A stretch of 63,072 nt of DNA, filler included, from Hausera hauseri (lineage: Eukaryota): the NCBI GenBank assembly GCA_046269625.1. It is 12 parts of 12 records of this genome, joined end to end, with 100 filler letters (N's around TTAATTAATTAA, not from the genome) between each part and the next. Parts side by side here need not be neighbours in the genome. Positions count along the whole stretch, not along the records: positions 13,676 to 17,806 come from JBJURY010742320.1; 11 more parts are not named here. One strand, 5' to 3'. Made by a program: the position numbers and the translations under genes. Shown one piece after another: positions 13,876 to 34,491 of the stretch; position 1 is the stretch's first letter, and each line of letters opens with the position of its first letter. The notes under the pieces were generated by a model. The model was not told the DNA's origin. It worked only from the letters and a program-made list of their open reading frames with translations, and ran no database searches.

Positions 13876-14109
13876 TCATATTCGATATCCCCGAATAATA
13901 CTCCACATTTCAAACTGAATATCTTGACAATAAGAATTAGCATGCTGATAATTTGAAAACTGTTCCGGATTATCGCGAAATAAATTTGAATCCAAATTAT
14001 TAAGAAAACGACCAAGAGCATAAAGACGCTCATAAGCACGAATAATCAATTTAGACATTTGATACTCAATCTTCCGAGCATCAGGAGAACGTAAAAAAAT
14101 CGTAGACAT
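13876..14109 (-). CDS. Small hypothetical protein (77 aa) downstream of rep
   Basis: ATG at 14109 just after the rep poly(A) signal, open to 13876. No recognisable domain. Confidence 0.4.
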   Translation of the reverse strand: MSTIFLRSPDARKIEYQMSKLIIRAYERLYALGRFLNNLDSNLFRDNPEQFSNYQHANSYCQDIQFEMWSIIRGYRI

Positions 14110-14175
14110 ATTTAAAACACAAGTAATTAAACACAAAACAATATATAATTTTATTCAACCAATCACAAAAATGAG

Positions 14176-15673
14176 TCAATGTCTTTGTGACGAAATTGTT
14201 TCATTTGAGTCGCCACTGAACTGCTCTTCAACTGCATCCATCGAATTAGGCATACGACGACTATTAGCCTCAATAACACGCCGAACATCAATGACATTGG
14301 AAGAAAGAAACACATCACGAGACGCCGAGCTACGATATAACAACTGATTGCCACAATCATACATTAAAAGACGTTTAATACACGCCTCCTTCTGGAAACC
14401 ATCCATACGAGAAGGCCAAAAACTAAGCGCACAGTTATATGTAAAAATAACTGGCACAACACTTGGGACAACAACCGATTTATAAAGACCACGAATCGAA
14501 CGGTTGTCCAATTCATGGTTACATTGCAGAATCGAAAGAAACAAGTCAGGAGATAGATCGTGGAAACCCACGTCATCAAAAATAATCACATCGTACTCCC
14601 CAGTCCACTCATTAGGAGTATCGTGGAGGCTATGCAAAAGTAACGGATTATTTCCATGACTTAAAGCGAACGACGTCTTCCCGATATTAGACGAGCCAAA
14701 GAGAACAGCGGAATTCCTCCCATCCTTAACAGAAAAAGGAATCTTAGGAATTAAGAAAACAAGATCCCTAATAGGAATAAATTTAGGCCGAAACTTATTA
14801 CGTACATATTGATTAAGCATTTTATGCCGCGTAATATATTCTGCTCTATCGCCATCCTTCATAATAGCGAGAGCATCCTCAACCGTAGGAGCCTCATCAA
14901 AAAGGCGATAAAGGGCTTTACGGGAGTTATTTTCCTTATAAGCATTAATAGGAGGATTCCCACAAGAAAGAATAATAGCTCCATCAAAAGAGGGTTTATA
15001 ATGATAAGAATATACGGCAAAAACATCTGCCCTAAATGGAACCACATAAGATTGAAGTTTCCTATGCATAAAAGACACCTTATTAGCATTCGGAGTGTAA
15101 ATCAAGACGTGGAGATGATGAAACCCTGAAGGCGATTTCTCCTCCTGAAGCCGTACAAACCAATTACGCGCACGATACAAATCATAATAAAAACGAAAAA
15201 TATCCCATACTTCATCACTACTACGCAAAGAATGAACCAACATCCAGTGCCTGAACGTAGCACCAGGAGGTGGATATGCTAAAGTGCGCACATCATCTTT
15301 AAATTTAGACTGCAAAGCGTCAAATACGTGATCACCTAATTCACGTTGAAGAAGAGGAATGTCATCGTCACCGAGCATCAAAAAAAATTTTTTGTATTGA
15401 TTAATTCTCCCATTATTATTATCCTATAAGGAAATTAAACAATATATAAAATAAATAAATAAACATTTAAAACAATTCTATCCAATAAAGGAATATCTTC
15501 TAAATTAGGAAATTCATTATCACCAACATCAATTATTTCATCCTTTAATTAATTAATAAAATTAATAAAATAAATTAAAATACTTGAGGTGCAATAATTT
15601 CCTCATGATGTACATCATCATTAATAATATTATTCCATATGTCAGCACAATCTATATCCACATTATAAGCCAT
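14176..15673 (-). CDS. rep: CRESS-DNA-virus-like Rep (HUH endonuclease plus SF3 helicase). Predicted exons 15673-15584, 15542-15474, 15423-14176 (~468 aa).
   Basis: Motif II HHLHVLI, motif III YHYK..DG, geminivirus-like oligomerisation helices, Walker A GSSNIGKT, Walker B IIFDDV, motif C FTYN and Arg finger IKRL. Two phase-0 GT-AG introns (41 and 50 nt) link an upstream ATG in frame. AATAAA follows the stop. Confidence 0.88.
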
Positions 15674-15747
15674 TATATTATATCAAATAATGAAATAATT
15701 CTATTTTAATTCAATTATATAGGTGCATTTGTTTTAATTCATCAATA

Positions 15748-15925
15748 CTGAATTTTTATTGGTTAAATCATATATAATATTTTCTACCCCTTAAACAGTT
15801 CACAAGAAAATTGAGTTACCAATAAGAATGAAGCAAAAATACTCGAATATGATTGGAGACTCAATTTAAATCTAAACTGTTTATGGGGTACAAAAAATTA
15901 TAAACGAGTATCCAATCAGAATTTA
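15748..15925. promoter_or_regulatory. Long imperfect palindrome with four CCAAT/ATTGG boxes between divergent ORFs
   Basis: TTTTCTACCCCTTAAACAGTT..AAATTGAGTTACCAAT (15780-15823) pairs with ATTGGAGACTCAATTT..AACTGTTTATGGGGTACAAAA (15852-15895); weaker pairing extends outward. Confidence 0.65.
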
Positions 15926-15944
15926 GATAAATAATAAATAAATG

Positions 15945-16137
15945 AACTACTTACTAATGTAAGTAGCATATATCGAAAAATAATAATCCAATATTCCAAA
16001 ATAATTTTATAATATTTGTAAATAACAAACTACTTACTAATGTAAGTAGTATATGGCAACTAAATCCAAAATAAATTTATATTTACCGATATTAAATTAT
16101 GATTTAACAAACTACTTACTAAAGTAAGTAGTATATA
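15945..16137. repeat. Three palindromic direct repeats AACTACTTAC-TAA(T/A)-GTAAGTAG(T/C)ATAT with an 82-83 bp period
   Basis: Cores start at 15947, 16030 and 16112; each has an 8-9 bp perfect stem and a 4 nt loop. Confidence 0.9.
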
Positions 16138-16308
16138 ACAGTAAAATGCATTAAATAAATAAAGTGCAAACGAGTCAGAATTCTATTTTTAGAATAACAG
16201 CATGACTGAATAAAGAAGCCTTGTTACTAATTAGTCTTTATGTCCATATTGACTTGTTTTAATTTACTACTGACATTTATTTATTTATTTATTTATTCCG
16301 AGGACCCC

Positions 16309-16425
16309 ATGAAGTACTACACGTACTTCATGGCACTGCCAACCGAAGTCCAGGTGGCCAGAATCAAGGAGCTCGAGAATGAAATAATGAACTTAAAATC
16401 GGGCATGTCTAATATTTTGATGTAA
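16309..16425 (+). CDS. Small (38 aa) putative protein divergent from rep
   Basis: MKYYTYFMALPTEVQVARIKELENEIMNLKSGMSNILM. GC-richer than its flanks, preceded by a pyrimidine tract and AG, followed by AATAAA at ~16443. Confidence 0.4.
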   Translation: MKYYTYFMALPTEVQVARIKELENEIMNLKSGMSNILM

Positions 16426-16754
16426 TATGTATATGTTATATTAATAAATGTTTATTATGTTAACTTGTCTGGAGTTAATTGCTCCAAATTTACCCGTGCA
16501 AATTATTTTAGAAAAAGGCAAAACCGTATGCAAATAGAAGAAATAGAAGAAATAGAACAATTATAGAACAAACTGAAAAGCAGAGGTAAATACAAACAAC
16601 AACCAATAATAAATGCCTCTGCACAAACAGAACATTACAATACAGTAATAACAAATAAAATAAAATAATTATTAACGCATTTGTTGGTTGCTAATGACAT
16701 CATTTTTGCTAATAACAATAAATAATATAATAATAATAGTTTTACTGTTTAAAA

Positions 16755-17164
16755 TAACTACAGGATGCCTCCTTTTCAAACGGTTCCTTAAATTCGTTTA
16801 TCCTCCAGCTGTTGTTATTCACTTTTCATAAATCTTGCATTTTGATTTACCATCCTTCATGTTGCTTTTGTTAAAATGCTTCCATACGTATAAAATGGCT
16901 GAAAGTTCCACAAATTAAAATTTACCTAAATATTTTTATAAATTTTATTTTTAAATTATTAATTCATTCAGACTTCATGCATATTTAATAGAATATTAAA
17001 AGTATGGACATTAATGACCTTACAAAAATTTAAATTACATACATAATGACATAATTATTCAAAATTAAATTTTAAATCTTACTTAATATTAGTTTCACTG
17101 TGCACCGTGCTGAACCGCTGCAGACGTCTAATTTAGGTGCAGCGGTGCACTGGTTCAAGCCCTA
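16755..17164 (-). mobile_element. hAT-like transposon 5' end with a degenerate BED zinc finger
   Basis: Terminus TAGGGCTTGAACCAGTGCACCGCTGCACC with subterminal repeats. Translation KCKIYEK*ITTAGG*TNLRNRLKRRHP. Confidence 0.55.
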
Positions 17165-18101
17165 ATTATTACTGAAGTGTCACTGCTTATTATGTTAACT
17201 TATTTGATTTTCTTGGACGATATTAATCTTCTAAACTCATTTTTAGTGCTTGTGGGTACTGTTATACGTATTTAATGAAGTGGATTCAACTGAGCATATC
17301 CTGCCCAATTAGCTTTCGGTTTGCAGTAGAAGTGGCAAACTGTTCTATTTACAAATGGTTCAAAATTATTGTATTACTTTATTAAAATTCTCCTCAACAC
17401 TGGTGAAATAAAGACTTGAGTTAGGTATGAATTTTGCTTGTCATTTTCGTTTTTTAACAGCAGTCAAACGATTGATAAATATAATGGAAAATTTCATTAT
17501 TTATTCCTTGTCATAGACCTGTTCTAAAAATTGCTTGACTTCAAATATGGTCTAAGCTAAATGTAAGTACGATTCCATTTTCTAACTATTTAGTGAGTTC
17601 ATTGAGTGCATCTATAGGTATTAAACACTGTCCATGTTTATTCTTTAGCTAAAACAAAATTTAATTTCATTGTTTATAATTTCATATTTACTATTACTCG
17701 CAGGCTCATAATCTGGGATACTGTTCTGAGTTATTTGACCCTCATGTGTCGGGGTATATTCTCCAAACAAGTCATCGAGTGTCATGTTGTTCTTTTCTTT
17801 GTTCATNNNNNNNNNNNNNNNNNNNNNNNNNNNNNNNNNNNNNNNNNNNNTTAATTAATTAANNNNNNNNNNNNNNNNNNNNNNNNNNNNNNNNNNNNNN
17901 NNNNNNGCTGAAATATTATGGCCGTCGGTCGCGGATCACACTTTAAGAACCACTGCTCTAAATAATAGTTGTACACTTTCTTTGAAAAGCTCTTGTTTCG
18001 AACTCATTCTAAAAATGTAAATATTTTAAATAATTAAGTTTACTATATATGTAAAGAATTCGATGCGCTACAAAATTAGCATCTTGGTATTCAAAAATAA
18101 G

Positions 18102-28515: not shown

Positions 28516-28895
28516 AGTCTGAACCTCGCTAAACTCACTTCTCAGAGTTAAATAATTACATATCGGCGAACAGCGCCATTCATACCAAGTAATTGGATAT
28601 ATATATAGAAACTAAAATCTATTGGGATATAAGGTTATTCTGACGGGGATAAGTAAAGCAAACGTAACTGAGAACAATCATTGATAGACCAGGATTAAAT
28701 CATATACTAAAAGATAATTCCCCTATACGTGATACACATAGGAACATATATAGAGAAACAGAAAAAGTAGATAAACGTTCGAATTCTGAGAATAGAATTA
28801 AACTAGACGACATTAAGCACAAAAACCAATTTAAAACTCCACGCGAAAAACTTAAAGTAAATAAACCGAATATAGAGTTAGATAAAGTAAATATA

Positions 28896-29925
28896 ATTGC
28901 AGCCGATAACGCACCAGTAGCACAGAAGCTGGACGTCTTCACTTTCGATTCTCTAAACTTGCCGGCATATGATGGAGACCCAGACGGGCTTAACAACTTC
29001 TTGAGATCTTACAATTTGCATGCAGAAGGTGCTAGTCTTACTCCGGAGGTAATGATCAAACGCTTGTCGTTGTATTTAAAGAATTTAGCCGCGGATGCTT
29101 ATAGCGAACTTACTAACGATGAGAAGAAAACTTGGTCCTCACTGGTAGGAGCATTAAATCGTAAATTATTGCCGACCGTAACGCCGCAACAGAAACTTAT
29201 GGCATTTCAGAATAGAGTACAGCAAAAAGGTGAATCAGTAACCCAATTCGCTTTTGCGTTAAAGAAACTTGCTAATAGTTATATTAGTACATTACGAATA
29301 GCTAACGTAGCTAAAGCTAAGACAGATGCGGAACGTGAAGCCTCTGAGAAGGCAACACCGCCAGACCTAGACGTCATGATGACGACACAACTAATTTATG
29401 GTATTTGGTCACGAGATTTAGTCAAACAGCTAATTTTAGCTAGACCTGAAAATTTCGAAGGAACTTTACAGTTGGCTCAGGATTTAGAAATGGCGTTAGA
29501 CAAATACGCCAGATATAGTGATAGAAACGATAGAAATAAGGACCGAAGTGATCGCAGCGATAGAAATCGCGAAAGGGATGATAGACAATTTACAGGAAAT
29601 AAAAATTATGGGAATAAATATAATAACGGCGGTTATAGAAACGGTCGAGGTAATTACTCTAATATGAATCGGTTAGATTCTAACTGGGATAGAAATAGAG
29701 GAAATTATAAAGGTTCGAACTAATCGAGTCATAACGGTGACAACCGACATAATGATACTAGACGAAGTGCAGATAATATGCAAAATTCACCAAACCAGCA
29801 TAATAAAAGTGAAAGTAGATCTAAGTCACCAGTGAACGAAGATGGTCGACAAAGAGTCGGCAGAAATGGAAATTTAGTTTGTTTTACTTGTGGTAAAGAA
29901 GGACACATTTCGAGAACATGCCCAA
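28896..29925 (+). pseudogene. gag: Gag: capsid, R/N/D-rich region and a single CCHC knuckle; one in-frame stop
   Basis: PAYDGDP..L..FL, RVQQKGESVTQFAFALKKLA (MHR-like) and CFTCGKEGHISRTC at 29880-29921. Confidence 0.88.
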
Positions 29926-32900
29926 ATCCGCGTAGTGTCTCATTCACTAAGACCAACAAGACTAGTATGATCCGAACTAATGAAAATTTAGAGGCAAAGT
30001 ATGGCGTTCGCGGAGACACAGGTACTATCATTGATATACAGGACTTGAGAAAATTCTTGGATGCTCAGCCAGATACTAATAACTTACAAATTTTGATGGC
30101 TAGAAGAGAATACGGAGATAAGTTGAGACTACTAGAAGTGTACCACGGTTTAGCCGAACCAAGAACGGAATATCAGCATGCAATAGCACCTAAACGAATT
30201 GATATGACACGGAAAAGAGTGTTCCGATGAGTAATAAACCGTCTGATAAACCAAGTACATCGGCAGAAGTCGACTTAGATGCAGTGCCTGAGTTTACGGG
30301 CGAGAAAATGGATAAGCCTATTGATGACGAAACGGCAGAAAAGAAATTTATAGAACCGTTAATACTTAAAATTACGAAAAACAGAGGTCGTAGCCCTTCC
30401 TTAAAAACGGAACGTAGTACTCGTTCACGTTCCAAAATAACTAGAGAGAAAATTGAAGAAACGGAAAACTCGAACGTCGTCTTAGGAAACGACACGAAAC
30501 ATAGTTTGAATACCCCGGAAATCGACCCACTTACGCCTGTCGGAAGAGCGGAGTCGGTAGAATTGACTAATGAAATTAATGAAATTTGTCCACTTCCCAT
30601 TAGTGAGGAAGAAACGGCCAACAATTACGATTTCAATTCAAAAAAATGGAAAATCCGACGCTCATGGAAAAACGCCGACGAATTAAAGAAAATAAGAATT
30701 TACTGTTTAGAGCCCGAAATATTGCAACGAAATTTAGAGAAGCTCAAGCAGATTAGCGAACAAGTTGATATATCCGGTAAAGAGCAGCAATACGTCGAGA
30801 AGTTATATAAAAGCTTGAAATTACGCAGTGAAGGAAAATTCGTTGAAGCAATCGAGGTGAGGCAACCTGAAGAGGTGTCCCCGGAAATATTATGGAAATG
30901 GAAAGCAAATTGGAATTGTGAAGAGGGTTGGAAATTTCGGAAGGATGGAACAAAAATGAAGAAAGTATCGATGTAAAAATTACCCAAGCTCAAACGCTAT
31001 TATCAACGTTAGAGGAAAATCCAAAACTGAAGAGAGTAGTCCACAATTTAAAACGTATAATGGATGAAGTTCAATACGCAATAACTAAACGACTTAGGGA
31101 AAAACCGGTTAACCATCGAGGTAATATCGATCTGGAAGTATTGGGAATAGACCCGCTGGATATTCCTCCCCTAACGGAAATGATAAAAGTCGCATTTGAT
31201 ACGTCCAAACAATATACAAACTTGGAGAATCGGTTGAAGATAGAAAATGAAAAGCGAGCACAAATCTACAGCTTGAGAAATAGAATCATGTCCCCAACCC
31301 ACGAGGAGACTCAATATATAGTAAAGGCTTGTATCGTAGAGTTAGACGAATACAAGGACGAGTTTAGTTATATCGGACGAGTTATGAATTTCCTAAAAGA
31401 ACCGGACGATGAGTTAGAAGACGCCTATAAGATGCTAGATAAAGCCATAATGGCAAAACCTGTAATCACAAATCAATTGTCGGAATGGTTCGAGCTAGTA
31501 ACGCGACTAACCAAATTGGTAGAAGACCGTAGAACGAAATTTCCGCAAAGCGATTCAATGGTGAAAAAGCAACTAGAGGAATGTGTACACGACTTAGCCA
31601 CGTTGATAATAGAAATAAACATCCGTGCTTAATTTGAAGCGCTACGACAACTAAAATTTATGAAAAAGGAACAGGAAGCATCGACGATGGAAGAAATCTA
31701 CAAATTAATTGAAGAGACGAACTATACGGAGAAACGGAATATGATTTACGATGTATATTTGAAGTTAAGCATCGTCCGACTAGAAGGGATTCAATATTTA
31801 ATCGGGAAACCAATCGACGAAATTTCTGCACAAAATATTGAAATTTTGGACATTTGTCCAGGATACCGAGATACGCTAATGGATTCACTAAGGTTTCTAC
31901 ACAAACCTTAAGAATGGATAACCGAATTAGATTAGAATTTCCATACGAAATTGGTAGAAATCGGAAACGACCCACATTTTAGTTTTTAGGAACACAAGTT
32001 CGTGAAGAAATTATCGGATGCAATGGACCCTGATTCAAAGGCTATAAATGAGATGTACGAGTTAGTCTATTTATTGGTGGAAATGACAAAAATCAGTGAT
32101 TAACAGATGAGACAATTGATGCCCAGGATACATAAAGTAAAAGAAACATGTATTAAAACGAAACAAAGGGCGATAAGGTTAGACGAAATAACAAAAGAAC
32201 TTGAAGTCTACCGAAACAAATATGCTTTTACCGAGTCCGAAATTAAGAATAAACAAGAATTTGTACAAAGATGGCAAAAGGATGTGATTCTTGAATTAAC
32301 AGATTATCACCAAAAAGGGCTAATCGACTCTAACGAATTCGGTGAATTATTGAAGACGATTCAATATGCCTGCGGAAACGGAGTAGGTTTCCGAACGATG
32401 AAAATGAAAGAAATGCAACCTAAACTAAAGGAAATTTGGGAAAACATTCAAAGAGCCAATACAGCTTTAGTGGACTACCGACTTCCGGATGTCGGAAACG
32501 AACCCAAATGGGATGCATACTTCGACAAAATACTTGCCGGAAAACCAATGACTCCAGTACAGCTAAGCGAAATAGAAACATGTCCCAAAGACAGAAGATT
32601 CAATGTGGAAATGGTACTAGATTCAGCGCTAACTGAAAAAGATTCGATGGAATTAATTAACGTAAATATTACTGAGAATAAACTACAACTTATTCTAACG
32701 TTAACTAAATTATCTAGCGAAAACACGATTTATAGTACGGTGCAGAAACTTTTGATAAGGAAGTACGCAAAAATCTTAAGGAAAAAACCAGAGGTAGCGA
32801 CAAAAATACTGGTATCATCCGAGTGGATGGATGAAAAAGAATGTGAATTAACCACTTATTCCTATGTAAAGGATGTGAGAGAATAGTTATTAAACAATGG

Positions 32901-33735
32901 CGGGACAAATGAGTTAAATTACAGATTCTACTTTAGAATCTGTACTCGACGACTTAGAACAGCTGATAGATGTCGGAATTATTTCTGATGAAACAAATCG
33001 GATAGTGGTCACAATAGGTAACGAACAGACAAAAGAGGAAGCCACACGTAAGGCTAAAGCAGAACAATGCGTCGGACAAATTATGGGAGTCCGAGACGCT
33101 GCACTATATTTTGAGTATATACAAACGGACGAAGATAAAGAACAATACGACATAAATTTAGCACCACTAAGCGAAGCAAACCCGAAAGGCCCAAGGCCAA
33201 AACGTCCAGTAGGCAGACCTAAAAAATGCGAGAAGAAGTGGACTACAATGGAGAAATAATTAGATAATTGAAACAGATGTCGATTCCGACTTTTAGCCCA
33301 GATAACGAGGAATTAAGTGAATTAATGAAGAATTTAATACGAATTGTAAATTACTCCAGCCTTCGAGGAGATGTGTTAGACGATAAAGAAAAGATAATAT
33401 TTGATGCAGCCAAAATGATGAAAAGTTCACGTTTCAAACTATCAAAAAGTAACTTAACCGATGAGTCAGTAATAGAAAAGATCATGGTAGAAAACACGAA
33501 TAAAGAATTGAGAAAAGTTTTGCTGTATTTGGCTATCAAAGTAAGTCCTAACCGAGAGAACGAAATCAACAGAGCTATAAGCTTAGCACGAAAAGCAGCG
33601 AGAAGACTGCCCTACGAAGTAAGTTGGTCAAGGTTATTCGAGAAAGAAAAAGATAAACGCAATAACAATAAACTGGATGACATAATACGCAACCTGACAA
33701 TGTCAGACGTAGGAGGTCGAAAGAACGAATCAAAT
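29926..33735 (+). pseudogene. Long unknown, largely helical polyprotein region in the position of pol; includes a ubiquitin-like domain (~32800-33020) and an AT-hook (~33195-33225)
   Basis: Consecutive ORFs 29778-34443 separated only by single stops or frameshifts, colinear with the copy at 59160-62890. No RT, RNase H or integrase motifs. KRPVGRPKK present. Confidence 0.7.
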
Positions 33736-34391
33736 TGGCTAATTAGCTTGCTCACTTTAATGATGTTGATCAAGCACATAGGCGCTGTAACCGTCTATGA
33801 CTGCGATAAGTTTAAGTTAGGACAAAGATACTCCCTAATGGATCTGGAAGCTTGCGAAGATGCCAGACCGCACAAATTGGAAACAAGAGAGAAAAATTAT
33901 TTTCTATATCAACAGCAAGAATTGGTATCGTTAGATGGAATAAAATGCATGTTGAGACGATCGCGTAGCATTTTCCATTGTGGATTAATTCATGGTCACT
34001 CCTCTATAATTAAACCGACCACACCGCTTATTCCGATGAACCTAGAACGTCAACATTGTAAACAAGCCAAGGAAACTGGGAAATTACAATGGAATAGCCT
34101 ACAATTGGAAATGCAACCCGGAAAAATAATTAGAGCATATAAAGTAATATCTAGAAAGTTAGATATGCATAGCGGACATTGTAGCGGAGCAGAATACGAC
34201 ACAGAAAAAGGATTAGAACCAAACGTAGTAGTTGTAGATTTTTATGAATCAGAAATGCAATCACAAAAGGTAATGTTCCATAGTGTCACTAAATTATATA
34301 CAGAAAACCCAAAATGTCATTTACAAGACGGAACCTGTGCTTTTAGAAGCTCGGTTATAATATGGGAACCTCCCTCTGGAAGGAGTTGTAA
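33736..34391 (+). CDS. Signal peptide plus chuvirus-like (class III) envelope glycoprotein N-terminus, truncated by the contig end
   Basis: WLISLLTLMMLIKHIGA, then VYDC..YSLMDLEAC..YQQ..IKC..SIFHCGLIHGHSS..C..A..TG and GHCSG, matching the GYDC/SLLDVxxC/YCGxHSH pattern of Jingchuvirales glycoproteins. Confidence 0.75.
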
Positions 34392-34491
34392 NNNNNNNNN
34401 NNNNNNNNNNNNNNNNNNNNNNNNNNNNNNNNNNNTTAATTAATTAANNNNNNNNNNNNNNNNNNNNNNNNNNNNNNNNNNNNNNNNNNNN

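Follow-up and report, generated by a model that had tools for sequence, protein, structure and literature searches.

A CRESS-type Rep gene with two predicted mini-introns and many diverged copies, possibly a capsid-less selfish element, in the Hausera hauseri assembly

The Reps of CRESS viruses are defined by HUH motifs I-III together with the SF3 Walker A, Walker B and C motifs and an Arg finger (PMC5923481), and a capsid gene and a nonanucleotide stem-loop are typical of the viruses themselves (PMC6186406). The introns found in the Reps of geminiviruses, genomoviruses and circoviruses occupy family-specific sites (10.1101/687855). Alphasatellites and Rep-only circular molecules are free circular replicons that have no capsid gene (PMC6186406). 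As endogenous sequences, near sixty Reps, some of them intact, were described in the salmon louse and Varroa by Liu et al. in 2011; selfish amplification was proposed for the Rep copies of both arthropods, while the flanks are unrelated and most copies were read as repeated invasions, and the word 'intron' is absent from the main text of that paper (PMC3198968). The same source covers two Rep-bearing planarian elements, the extrachromosomal PEVE and the integrated PIVE, as well as a geminivirus-like transposon of the truffle Tuber melanosporum with an interrupted Rep, transposase ORFs and 37-bp TIRs (PMC3198968). Replitrons, known from plants, algae and protists, encode a eukaryotic Y1 HUH Rep that is weakly linked to CRESS Reps and lacks a helicase, move by copy-and-paste and have a hairpin near one end (Craig 2023, PMC10288648); Helitrons are of the Y2 type, with an SF1B helicase (PMC10288648).

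The stretch of DNA analysed here (the window, 1-63072; 63,072 nt) is a composite of 12 separate contigs of 4.0-7.3 kb each, joined by the spacer N44-TTAATTAATTAA-N44. Thus, arguments from neighbourhood across the spacers are invalid. In particular, an earlier note on this DNA had stressed that the Rep gene is intact among broken neighbours, and this argument fails, because the disrupted mobile ORFs (LTR) sit on other contigs. The sequence of the Rep-bearing contig is present in only two runs, X1, which may be the source run, and X2, which is from another organism. The features of the contig are given in Table 1.

Table 1. Features located or predicted on the Rep-bearing contig (positions are those of the window; -, Rep strand)
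Feature	Position	Strand	Remarks
Rep-bearing contig	13676-17806		JBJURY010742320.1, Hausera hauseri; 4,131 nt, GC 0.31; N spacers on either side
High-copy repeat	13676-13745		Contig end; closes in a CTACTG...CAGTAG hairpin, 13724-13745
ORF2	13876-14109	-	77 codons
AATAAA	14150-14155	-	21 nt past Rep stop; GT-rich sequence comes next; likely poly(A) signal
Exon 3 / Rep frame	14176-15423	-	415 codons plus stop, unbroken
Arg finger CIKRL	14382-14368	-	
Motif C IFTYN	14448-14434	-	
Walker B IIFDD	14586-14572	-	
Walker A GSSNIGKT	14697-14674	-	
HUH motif III YHYK	15006-14995	-	One catalytic Tyr
HUH motif II HHLHV	15120-15106	-	
HUH motif I FRHWMLVH	15255-15232	-	
Predicted intron 2	15424-15473	-	50 nt, GT-AG, phase 0, GC 12%
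Predicted exon 2	15474-15542	-	23 codons, 8 D/E, contains DIPLL
Predicted intron 1	15543-15583	-	41 nt, GT-AG, phase 0, GC 5%
Predicted exon 1	15584-15673	-	30 codons from ATG, 7 D/E
TATATAA	15715-15721	-	28 nt upstream of a TCATT initiator-like site at 15693
Imperfect palindrome	15748-15926		180 bp, 71% self-complementary; fold z -7.6
CCAAT/ATTGG boxes in palindrome	15916, 15856, 15823, 15762		
Three repeats	15925-16150		Period 82-83 nt; each with a 9-bp-stem hairpin
Repeat hairpins	15946-15967, 16029-16050, 16111-16132		
Hairpin	16307-16333		11-bp stem, 5-nt loop; z -4.6; adjoins (TAAA)n at 16275-16297

The protein encoded by the long exon is, as judged from its sequence and a structural model, firmly identified as a CRESS-type Rep with an HUH Y1 nuclease and an SF3 helicase. 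The exon is unbroken, as had been claimed, and all of the motifs claimed with it (HUH, YxxK, Walker A/B, motif C and the Arg finger) were located; in an alignment with 19-20 relatives, residues Y140, G243, K249, T250, D283, D284, N330 and R351 stand at invariant columns. The alignment and the model give a layout of about 55 further N-terminal residues, the HUH Y1 nuclease, a helical linker, the SF3 helicase and a low-confidence tail. Atlas assigned the protein to Cressdnaviricota Rep clusters (0.97), and the Rep family profile matches PCV2 Rep 7lar (E 2.5e-08). The alignment-based model (pLDDT 74.8) matches HUH/SF3 proteins of CRESS viruses, AAV and papillomavirus E1; a single-sequence fold was unusable (pLDDT 34.5). 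The relatives are remote: a phmmer search of 1.84 billion representatives gave 358 matches at E<=1e-3, of which 37 pass 1e-10 and none passes 1e-30; the nearest is only 30% identical. As a single sequence the Rep found no match in Pfam, PDB, plasmids, phages or viral contigs, word-indexed homolog searches returned nothing beyond one already known protein, and a search of viral contigs with protein P0001 yielded no additional loci.

Upstream of the long exon, the two phase-0 GT-AG segments that the earlier note had read as introns are borne out as sequence features, their splicing being predicted, and the Rep transcript is very probably spliced at both. The note had also spoken of 53 acidic residues; exons 1 and 2 do add 53 residues, of which 15 are D/E and one is R. 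A second possible donor for intron 2, at 15464, would give an intron of 41 nt and 56 added codons. The DIPLL repeat is present as described, once in exon 2 and once in exon 3. The introns had further been likened to those of the host TAF1B gene; their sizes are comparable, but TAF1B lies on another contig and perhaps belongs to another organism. In geminiviruses, genomoviruses and circoviruses the Rep introns typically lie inside the Rep core. The TATATAA, TCATT and AATAAA sequences we take to be polymerase II signals.

The gene might instead be unspliced and start at Met16 (15378), the upstream exons being unused and the AT-rich segments serving as promoter or leader, an arrangement that could be combined with any of the origins discussed below and that we consider unlikely. 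A protein begun at Met16 would have 400 residues and the complete motif set, and the surroundings of the predicted introns are themselves 75-82% AT. However, when the 337 nt upstream were dinucleotide-shuffled 500 times, a spliced extension of at least 53 added codons was never obtained (at least 30 codons in two, any extension in 17), a TATA box lies upstream of exon 1, and the two DIPLL copies use different Leu and Asp codons. Furthermore, one paralog keeps the length of the segment, another (record 5 of X1), which spans both introns with gaps, adds 6 letters in frame upstream of Met16, and relatives have introns of the same size.

Intron 1 with exon 2 resembles intron 2 with the start of exon 3 (75% over 48 nt, within 15412-15578), and exons 2 and 3 both begin with Asp and both contain DIPLL. 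The acidic extension may have grown through duplication of an intron-exon unit. A reading of the IDCAD of exon 1 as an LxCxE-like motif was not supported; such a motif occurs in the examined N-terminal part of only 1 of 150 relatives.

The unit that contains the gene is about 2.5 kb long, roughly 13750-16300. ORF2, for which no family match was found in Pfam or Atlas, shares with Rep its T-rich third positions, and fourfold sites are skewed T>A and G>C (T 0.55, A 0.12). Apart from the frame of ORF2, the Rep contig has no ORF of at least 80 codons outside the Rep interval. The hairpin at the far end of the upstream region is possibly the 5' boundary of the unit, or the end of a neighbouring repeat. 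At the opposite end, the high-copy repeat could be either the element's own end or an unrelated repeat: the bin 13676-13782 has a depth of 5905 in X1 and 261 in X2, with 7-13 in the X1 flank, and the X1 contigs show several different loose ends after 13745 and no joint to the 5' region. These differing loose ends fit an unrelated repeat that stops at 13745. A CTACT...AGTAG hairpin occurs four times in 13676-16400, one of these being in the high-copy end, compared with a mean of 0.003 in shuffles; the remaining 58.7 kb contain one, and 3 of the 89 loci have it. These counts apply to a motif picked after inspection, and its tandem copies represent one event; in viral contigs the pattern gave 7 scattered single matches. 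The 9-bp inverted match TGTCAGTAG (13737/16267; once in L036) was rejected as a TIR, since matches so short are common in AT-rich DNA. No significant non-coding similarity between the query contig and any locus was detected by blastn, and Rfam and tRNA scans gave no match.

The locus can now be compared with the described systems. Examination of ORFs, Pfam and Atlas gave no capsid candidate on the Rep contig; the earlier statement that no capsid gene is visible therefore holds for this contig, while sequence beyond its 3' end, which is reached 200 nt past ORF2, lies outside the scope of that statement. There is no NANTATTAC between 13676 and 17100; it occurs only at 17165 and 17690, at least 1.5 kb from the Rep gene and at the level expected by chance in the window. 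The hairpins found in the unit have 4-5-nt loops, and none is a nonanucleotide stem-loop. Thus, the query has in common with Cressdnaviricota the HUH and SF3 motif set, whereas their capsid gene and nonanucleotide stem-loop are absent from its contig. Like Replitrons it is of the Y1 HUH type, but it has a full SF3 helicase, and no short terminal direct repeat has been established. Helitrons, as rolling-circle transposons with an HUH domain plus a helicase and a terminal hairpin, are similar in kind, but motif III of the query has one Tyr (Tyr140), its helicase is SF3 and no Pfam PIF1 match was found. The Tuber melanosporum element is also an amplified Rep repeat family; the query, however, has an unbroken Rep and encodes no further transposase. 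Alphasatellites and Rep-only circles are similarly capsid-less Rep replicons, but they are free circles and are not described in PMC6186406 as integrated or spliced. The endogenous Reps of Liu et al. are likewise of circular-ssDNA-virus type and multi-copy, but the query has in addition two predicted 5' introns, ORF2 and a structured repeat region. By the tests run, the element is a member of neither Cressdnaviricota, Replitrons nor Helitrons, other origin motifs being possible; we regard it as a previously undescribed form of endogenous CRESS-like element.

Copies of the gene were sought by mapping the contigs of runs X1 and X2 at 80% likeness onto 13676-16880. In X1, 208 contigs match, a count that includes pieces of the high-copy end; 54 of them are at least 99% alike, 27 are 95-99%, 46 are 90-95% and 81 are below 90% alike. 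Mean depth in X1 is 67 over Rep and 7.4 on a 1,293-nt upstream contig, a ratio of about 9, although summed contig depth is a rough guide and not a copy number. The copy-number check indicates that the Rep gene is multi-copy in X1, with many copies 5-20% diverged. A second copy (record 1) joins Rep and ORF2 in the same order with a different spacer, and another (record 4) extends from the Rep 5' end to the palindrome with 312 letters for 310 and a differing sequence. Past about 15870, the X1 depth of the upstream repeats is that of a single copy, so that this end is not clearly common to the copies. Among the best-supported 40 of 305 rows, 17 of 35 differences in exon 3 are synonymous, compared with 21% expected (p 3e-4, every site being taken alone), 20 of the 35 are at third positions and none creates a stop. 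The synonymous bias and the lack of stops suggest that the copies diverged while Rep was under selection, which in turn points to an active element or a virus and not to one domesticated gene.

X2 has three short pieces, 90-99% alike, which extend across the introns, ORF2 and 16214-16379 at a depth of 2.5; most of the Rep core is without contig cover in this run, which is not evidence of absence. Another X2 contig, with a depth of 44.9, matches the upstream hairpin repeat at 15999-16020 and then diverges from the window, indicating that the hairpin-repeat motif is repeated in this second organism too.

These copies bear on whether Rep could be a domesticated gene, that is, one host gene with a cellular job that gained host introns after capture. 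Its intact frame, polymerase II signals, short introns and very long branch (2.88 in the mixture-model tree described below) would suit such a history, as would the likeness of the X2 pieces. However, many X1 copies are 5-20% diverged, every catalytic residue has been retained, as have the structured ends and a linked ORF2, and the X2 pieces, at their low depth, establish no orthologous locus. Because Rep belongs to a multi-copy family, domestication is disfavoured, and we regard it as very improbable indeed.

There is a slim chance that the contig does not come from the chromosomes of the animal to which the transposons elsewhere in the window belong, but is an extrachromosomal replicon, linear or circular and single or one of a swarm, or stems from a parasite or symbiont that was sequenced along with it. 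At 4.1 kb the contig is short, no host gene can be recognised on it and it has no repeat in common with the other 11 contigs, one of the virus-like relatives described below (L086) likewise has long AT-rich non-coding ends, and the codon skew of TAF1B relative to the LTR contigs suggests that the window may mix organisms. Against this, the 1,293-nt X1 contig of low depth runs unbroken and without a difference from exon 1 through 16864 (it is identical to 15584-16864), the 1.5 kb of the Rep contig beyond 16300 are non-coding, and the other end enters a repeat that is hundreds of times deeper in X1, and deep in X2, as expected of chromosomal DNA. None of the X1 contig joints closes a circle, though contigs show presence and not absence.

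Relatives of Rep were found at 48 IMG/VR loci, all distant (23-44% in the best segment); among the loci listed, as judged by eye, most are circles of small size that encode an additional, Arg-rich ORF and frequently carry a nonanucleotide stem-loop. A 156-row tree places the query on a long branch next to a group of 52 rows, which includes only 1 of the 35 IMG/VR rows; neither in this tree nor in a 51-row mixture-model tree does the query fall in a starred set, and its branch measures 1.8-2.88 across the two trees, both of which are without named Cressdnaviricota family references. Profiles of three IMG/VR-poor groups score the query at 126-135 bits, compared with 98-111 for the other four, scores that are partly circular because the rows were found using the query. 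The profile of L036/L065 scores it at 104.8, compared with 134-135 for the larger groups, and an AU test of a clade uniting the query with L036, L065 and L086 neither rejects nor shows this grouping (p 0.106).

A scan for AT-rich GT-AG segments of 30-66 nt detected them at 5 of 85 loci, and within Rep at 2 of the 85 (L065 and L085), where 40-nt segments interrupt sequence that is contiguous in other members. L065 (1720-3480) contains a Rep with AT-rich introns of 43 and 40 nt and three 109-nt tandem repeats with CTACTGAGTAG, ATTGG and hairpin arms as in the query; a LINE-like Ulp1-protease ORF and a zf-RVT ORF lie on its flanks, and its 4.6 kb include no capsid-like ORF. L085 (1-1338), which comes from the same assembly as L065 and is not independent of it, carries a decayed Rep. 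A 40-nt intron follows its motif C, and an AT-rich segment stops just short of motif I, in the same position as in L065. The intron sites of the query differ from those of its relatives, and short introns may therefore have arisen more than once.

The closest relative of L065 is L036/L086, with a Rep 45% identical to that of L065 and 24% identical to that of the query. L086 (1-5699) is a virus-like record of 5.7 kb with 243-nt terminal inverted repeats and long AT-rich non-coding ends; its split CRESS-type Rep has candidate short introns in the 5' part and a long N-terminal extension, and there are two more large ORFs of 626 and 277 residues. The 277-residue ORF is capsid-like by eye, yet had no match in Pfam or PDB. 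This layout, a unique region between inverted repeats, may resemble that of PEVE, whereas the query contig has neither long terminal inverted repeats nor large extra ORFs. Related Rep genes also occur in L081 (3827-4648, on a 58-kb gene-dense contig) and in L076 (3257-4462, beside a PIF1 helicase), which suggests capture by large DNA viruses.

Three readings had been offered earlier for this locus, and the one that fits best is a capsid-less mobile element, a virus lineage being almost as likely. We tentatively favour a capsid-less selfish Rep element that would have formed a multi-copy family by multiplying inside the host genome, on the basis of the many diverged copies, the conserved order of Rep and ORF2, the structured non-coding ends and the lack of a capsid gene. 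Several observations argue against it: the short contigs of X1 revealed neither an empty site nor a target-site pattern, and neither a terminus common to the copies nor a junction that closes a circle, the synonymous bias and the T>A, G>C skew of fourfold sites are equally expected of viral copies, L086, with its virus-like terminal inverted repeats, has a similarly split Rep, and a capsid gene could lie beyond the 3' end of the contig.

The copies could otherwise be endogenous viral elements, left when a CRESS-type virus, or the Rep segment or satellite of a multipartite one, entered the germline again and again. The Rep would then have been spliced already in the living virus and the copies would not move by themselves, an origin that we hold to be possible but somewhat doubtful. 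The complete virus-type Rep, the ssDNA-like base skew of Rep and ORF2 and the unit size of about 2.5 kb are all in keeping with it, as are the terminal inverted repeats, intron-candidate Rep and two large ORFs of L086, the 40-43-nt AT-rich introns inside conserved Rep sequence in L065 and L085, and the precedent of the arthropod Reps, with their unrelated flanks and mostly repeated invasions (Liu et al. 2011, PMC3198968). However, no capsid gene flanks the Rep although promoter, poly(A) signal, ORF2 and repeat region have been kept, there is no nonanucleotide stem-loop, and the query is not placed with L036/L065, from which it also differs in intron positions. The selfish-element and viral-integration readings differ only in where the copying took place.

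On the selfish-element reading, transcription of Rep by host polymerase II from the TATA box is predicted, and once the two short introns are spliced out the product would be about 468 residues long and begin with an acidic head. From the chemistry of Reps, Tyr140 would then cut a single strand at one of the unit's hairpins. The helicase ring of Rep would peel the cut strand away while a host polymerase copies it, and finally Rep would close the strand into a circle or deliver it to another position in the chromosomes. The acidic head and ORF2 might be accessory, and at a guess could bind host cell-cycle or transcription factors. A bolder version, which we think rather unlikely, is a new group of eukaryotic rolling-circle transposons with the whole HUH plus SF3 Rep as transposase, capsid lost and host introns gained; the hairpin-ended repeat of high copy number would then consist of non-autonomous derivatives of this group, and L065, with the same hairpin motif in three tandem repeats, would represent the group in another animal.

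The idea that a CRESS Rep might become an autonomous animal transposon was proposed in 2011 (PMC3198968). In the literature searched, with most subscription papers and Repbase outside its scope, we found no description of an HUH plus SF3 transposon group or of 5' mini-introns in endogenous Reps, and no case of a CRESS Rep transposon with defined ends. In the present family the Rep is intact and is accompanied by expression signals of host type and by candidate cis elements, which makes the idea directly testable. If the copies are viral fossils, they would mark a very divergent ssDNA lineage and link Reps that are largely without known hosts to eukaryotes with small introns.

Elsewhere in the window, Pfam scans recovered only TAF1B, a decayed PARG copy, and Tc1/mariner and LTR elements. 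The TAF1B-like gene at 480-2247 (a weak Pfam match, E 0.002) has candidate introns of 42-48 nt, and its contig has G/T-rich third positions and a codon skew unlike that of the LTR contigs; it may represent a different, compact genome within one assembly, so that the window could mix organisms. The decayed PARG copy (7600-9366, minus strand) is apparently intron-less and directly follows a LINE-like 3' end with a (GAT)n tail. A decayed LTR element at 28668-34440 has a gag-like ORF, a weak Baculo_F match and a match to the fusion glycoprotein of Monjiviricetes (chuvirus-type; E 2e-17).
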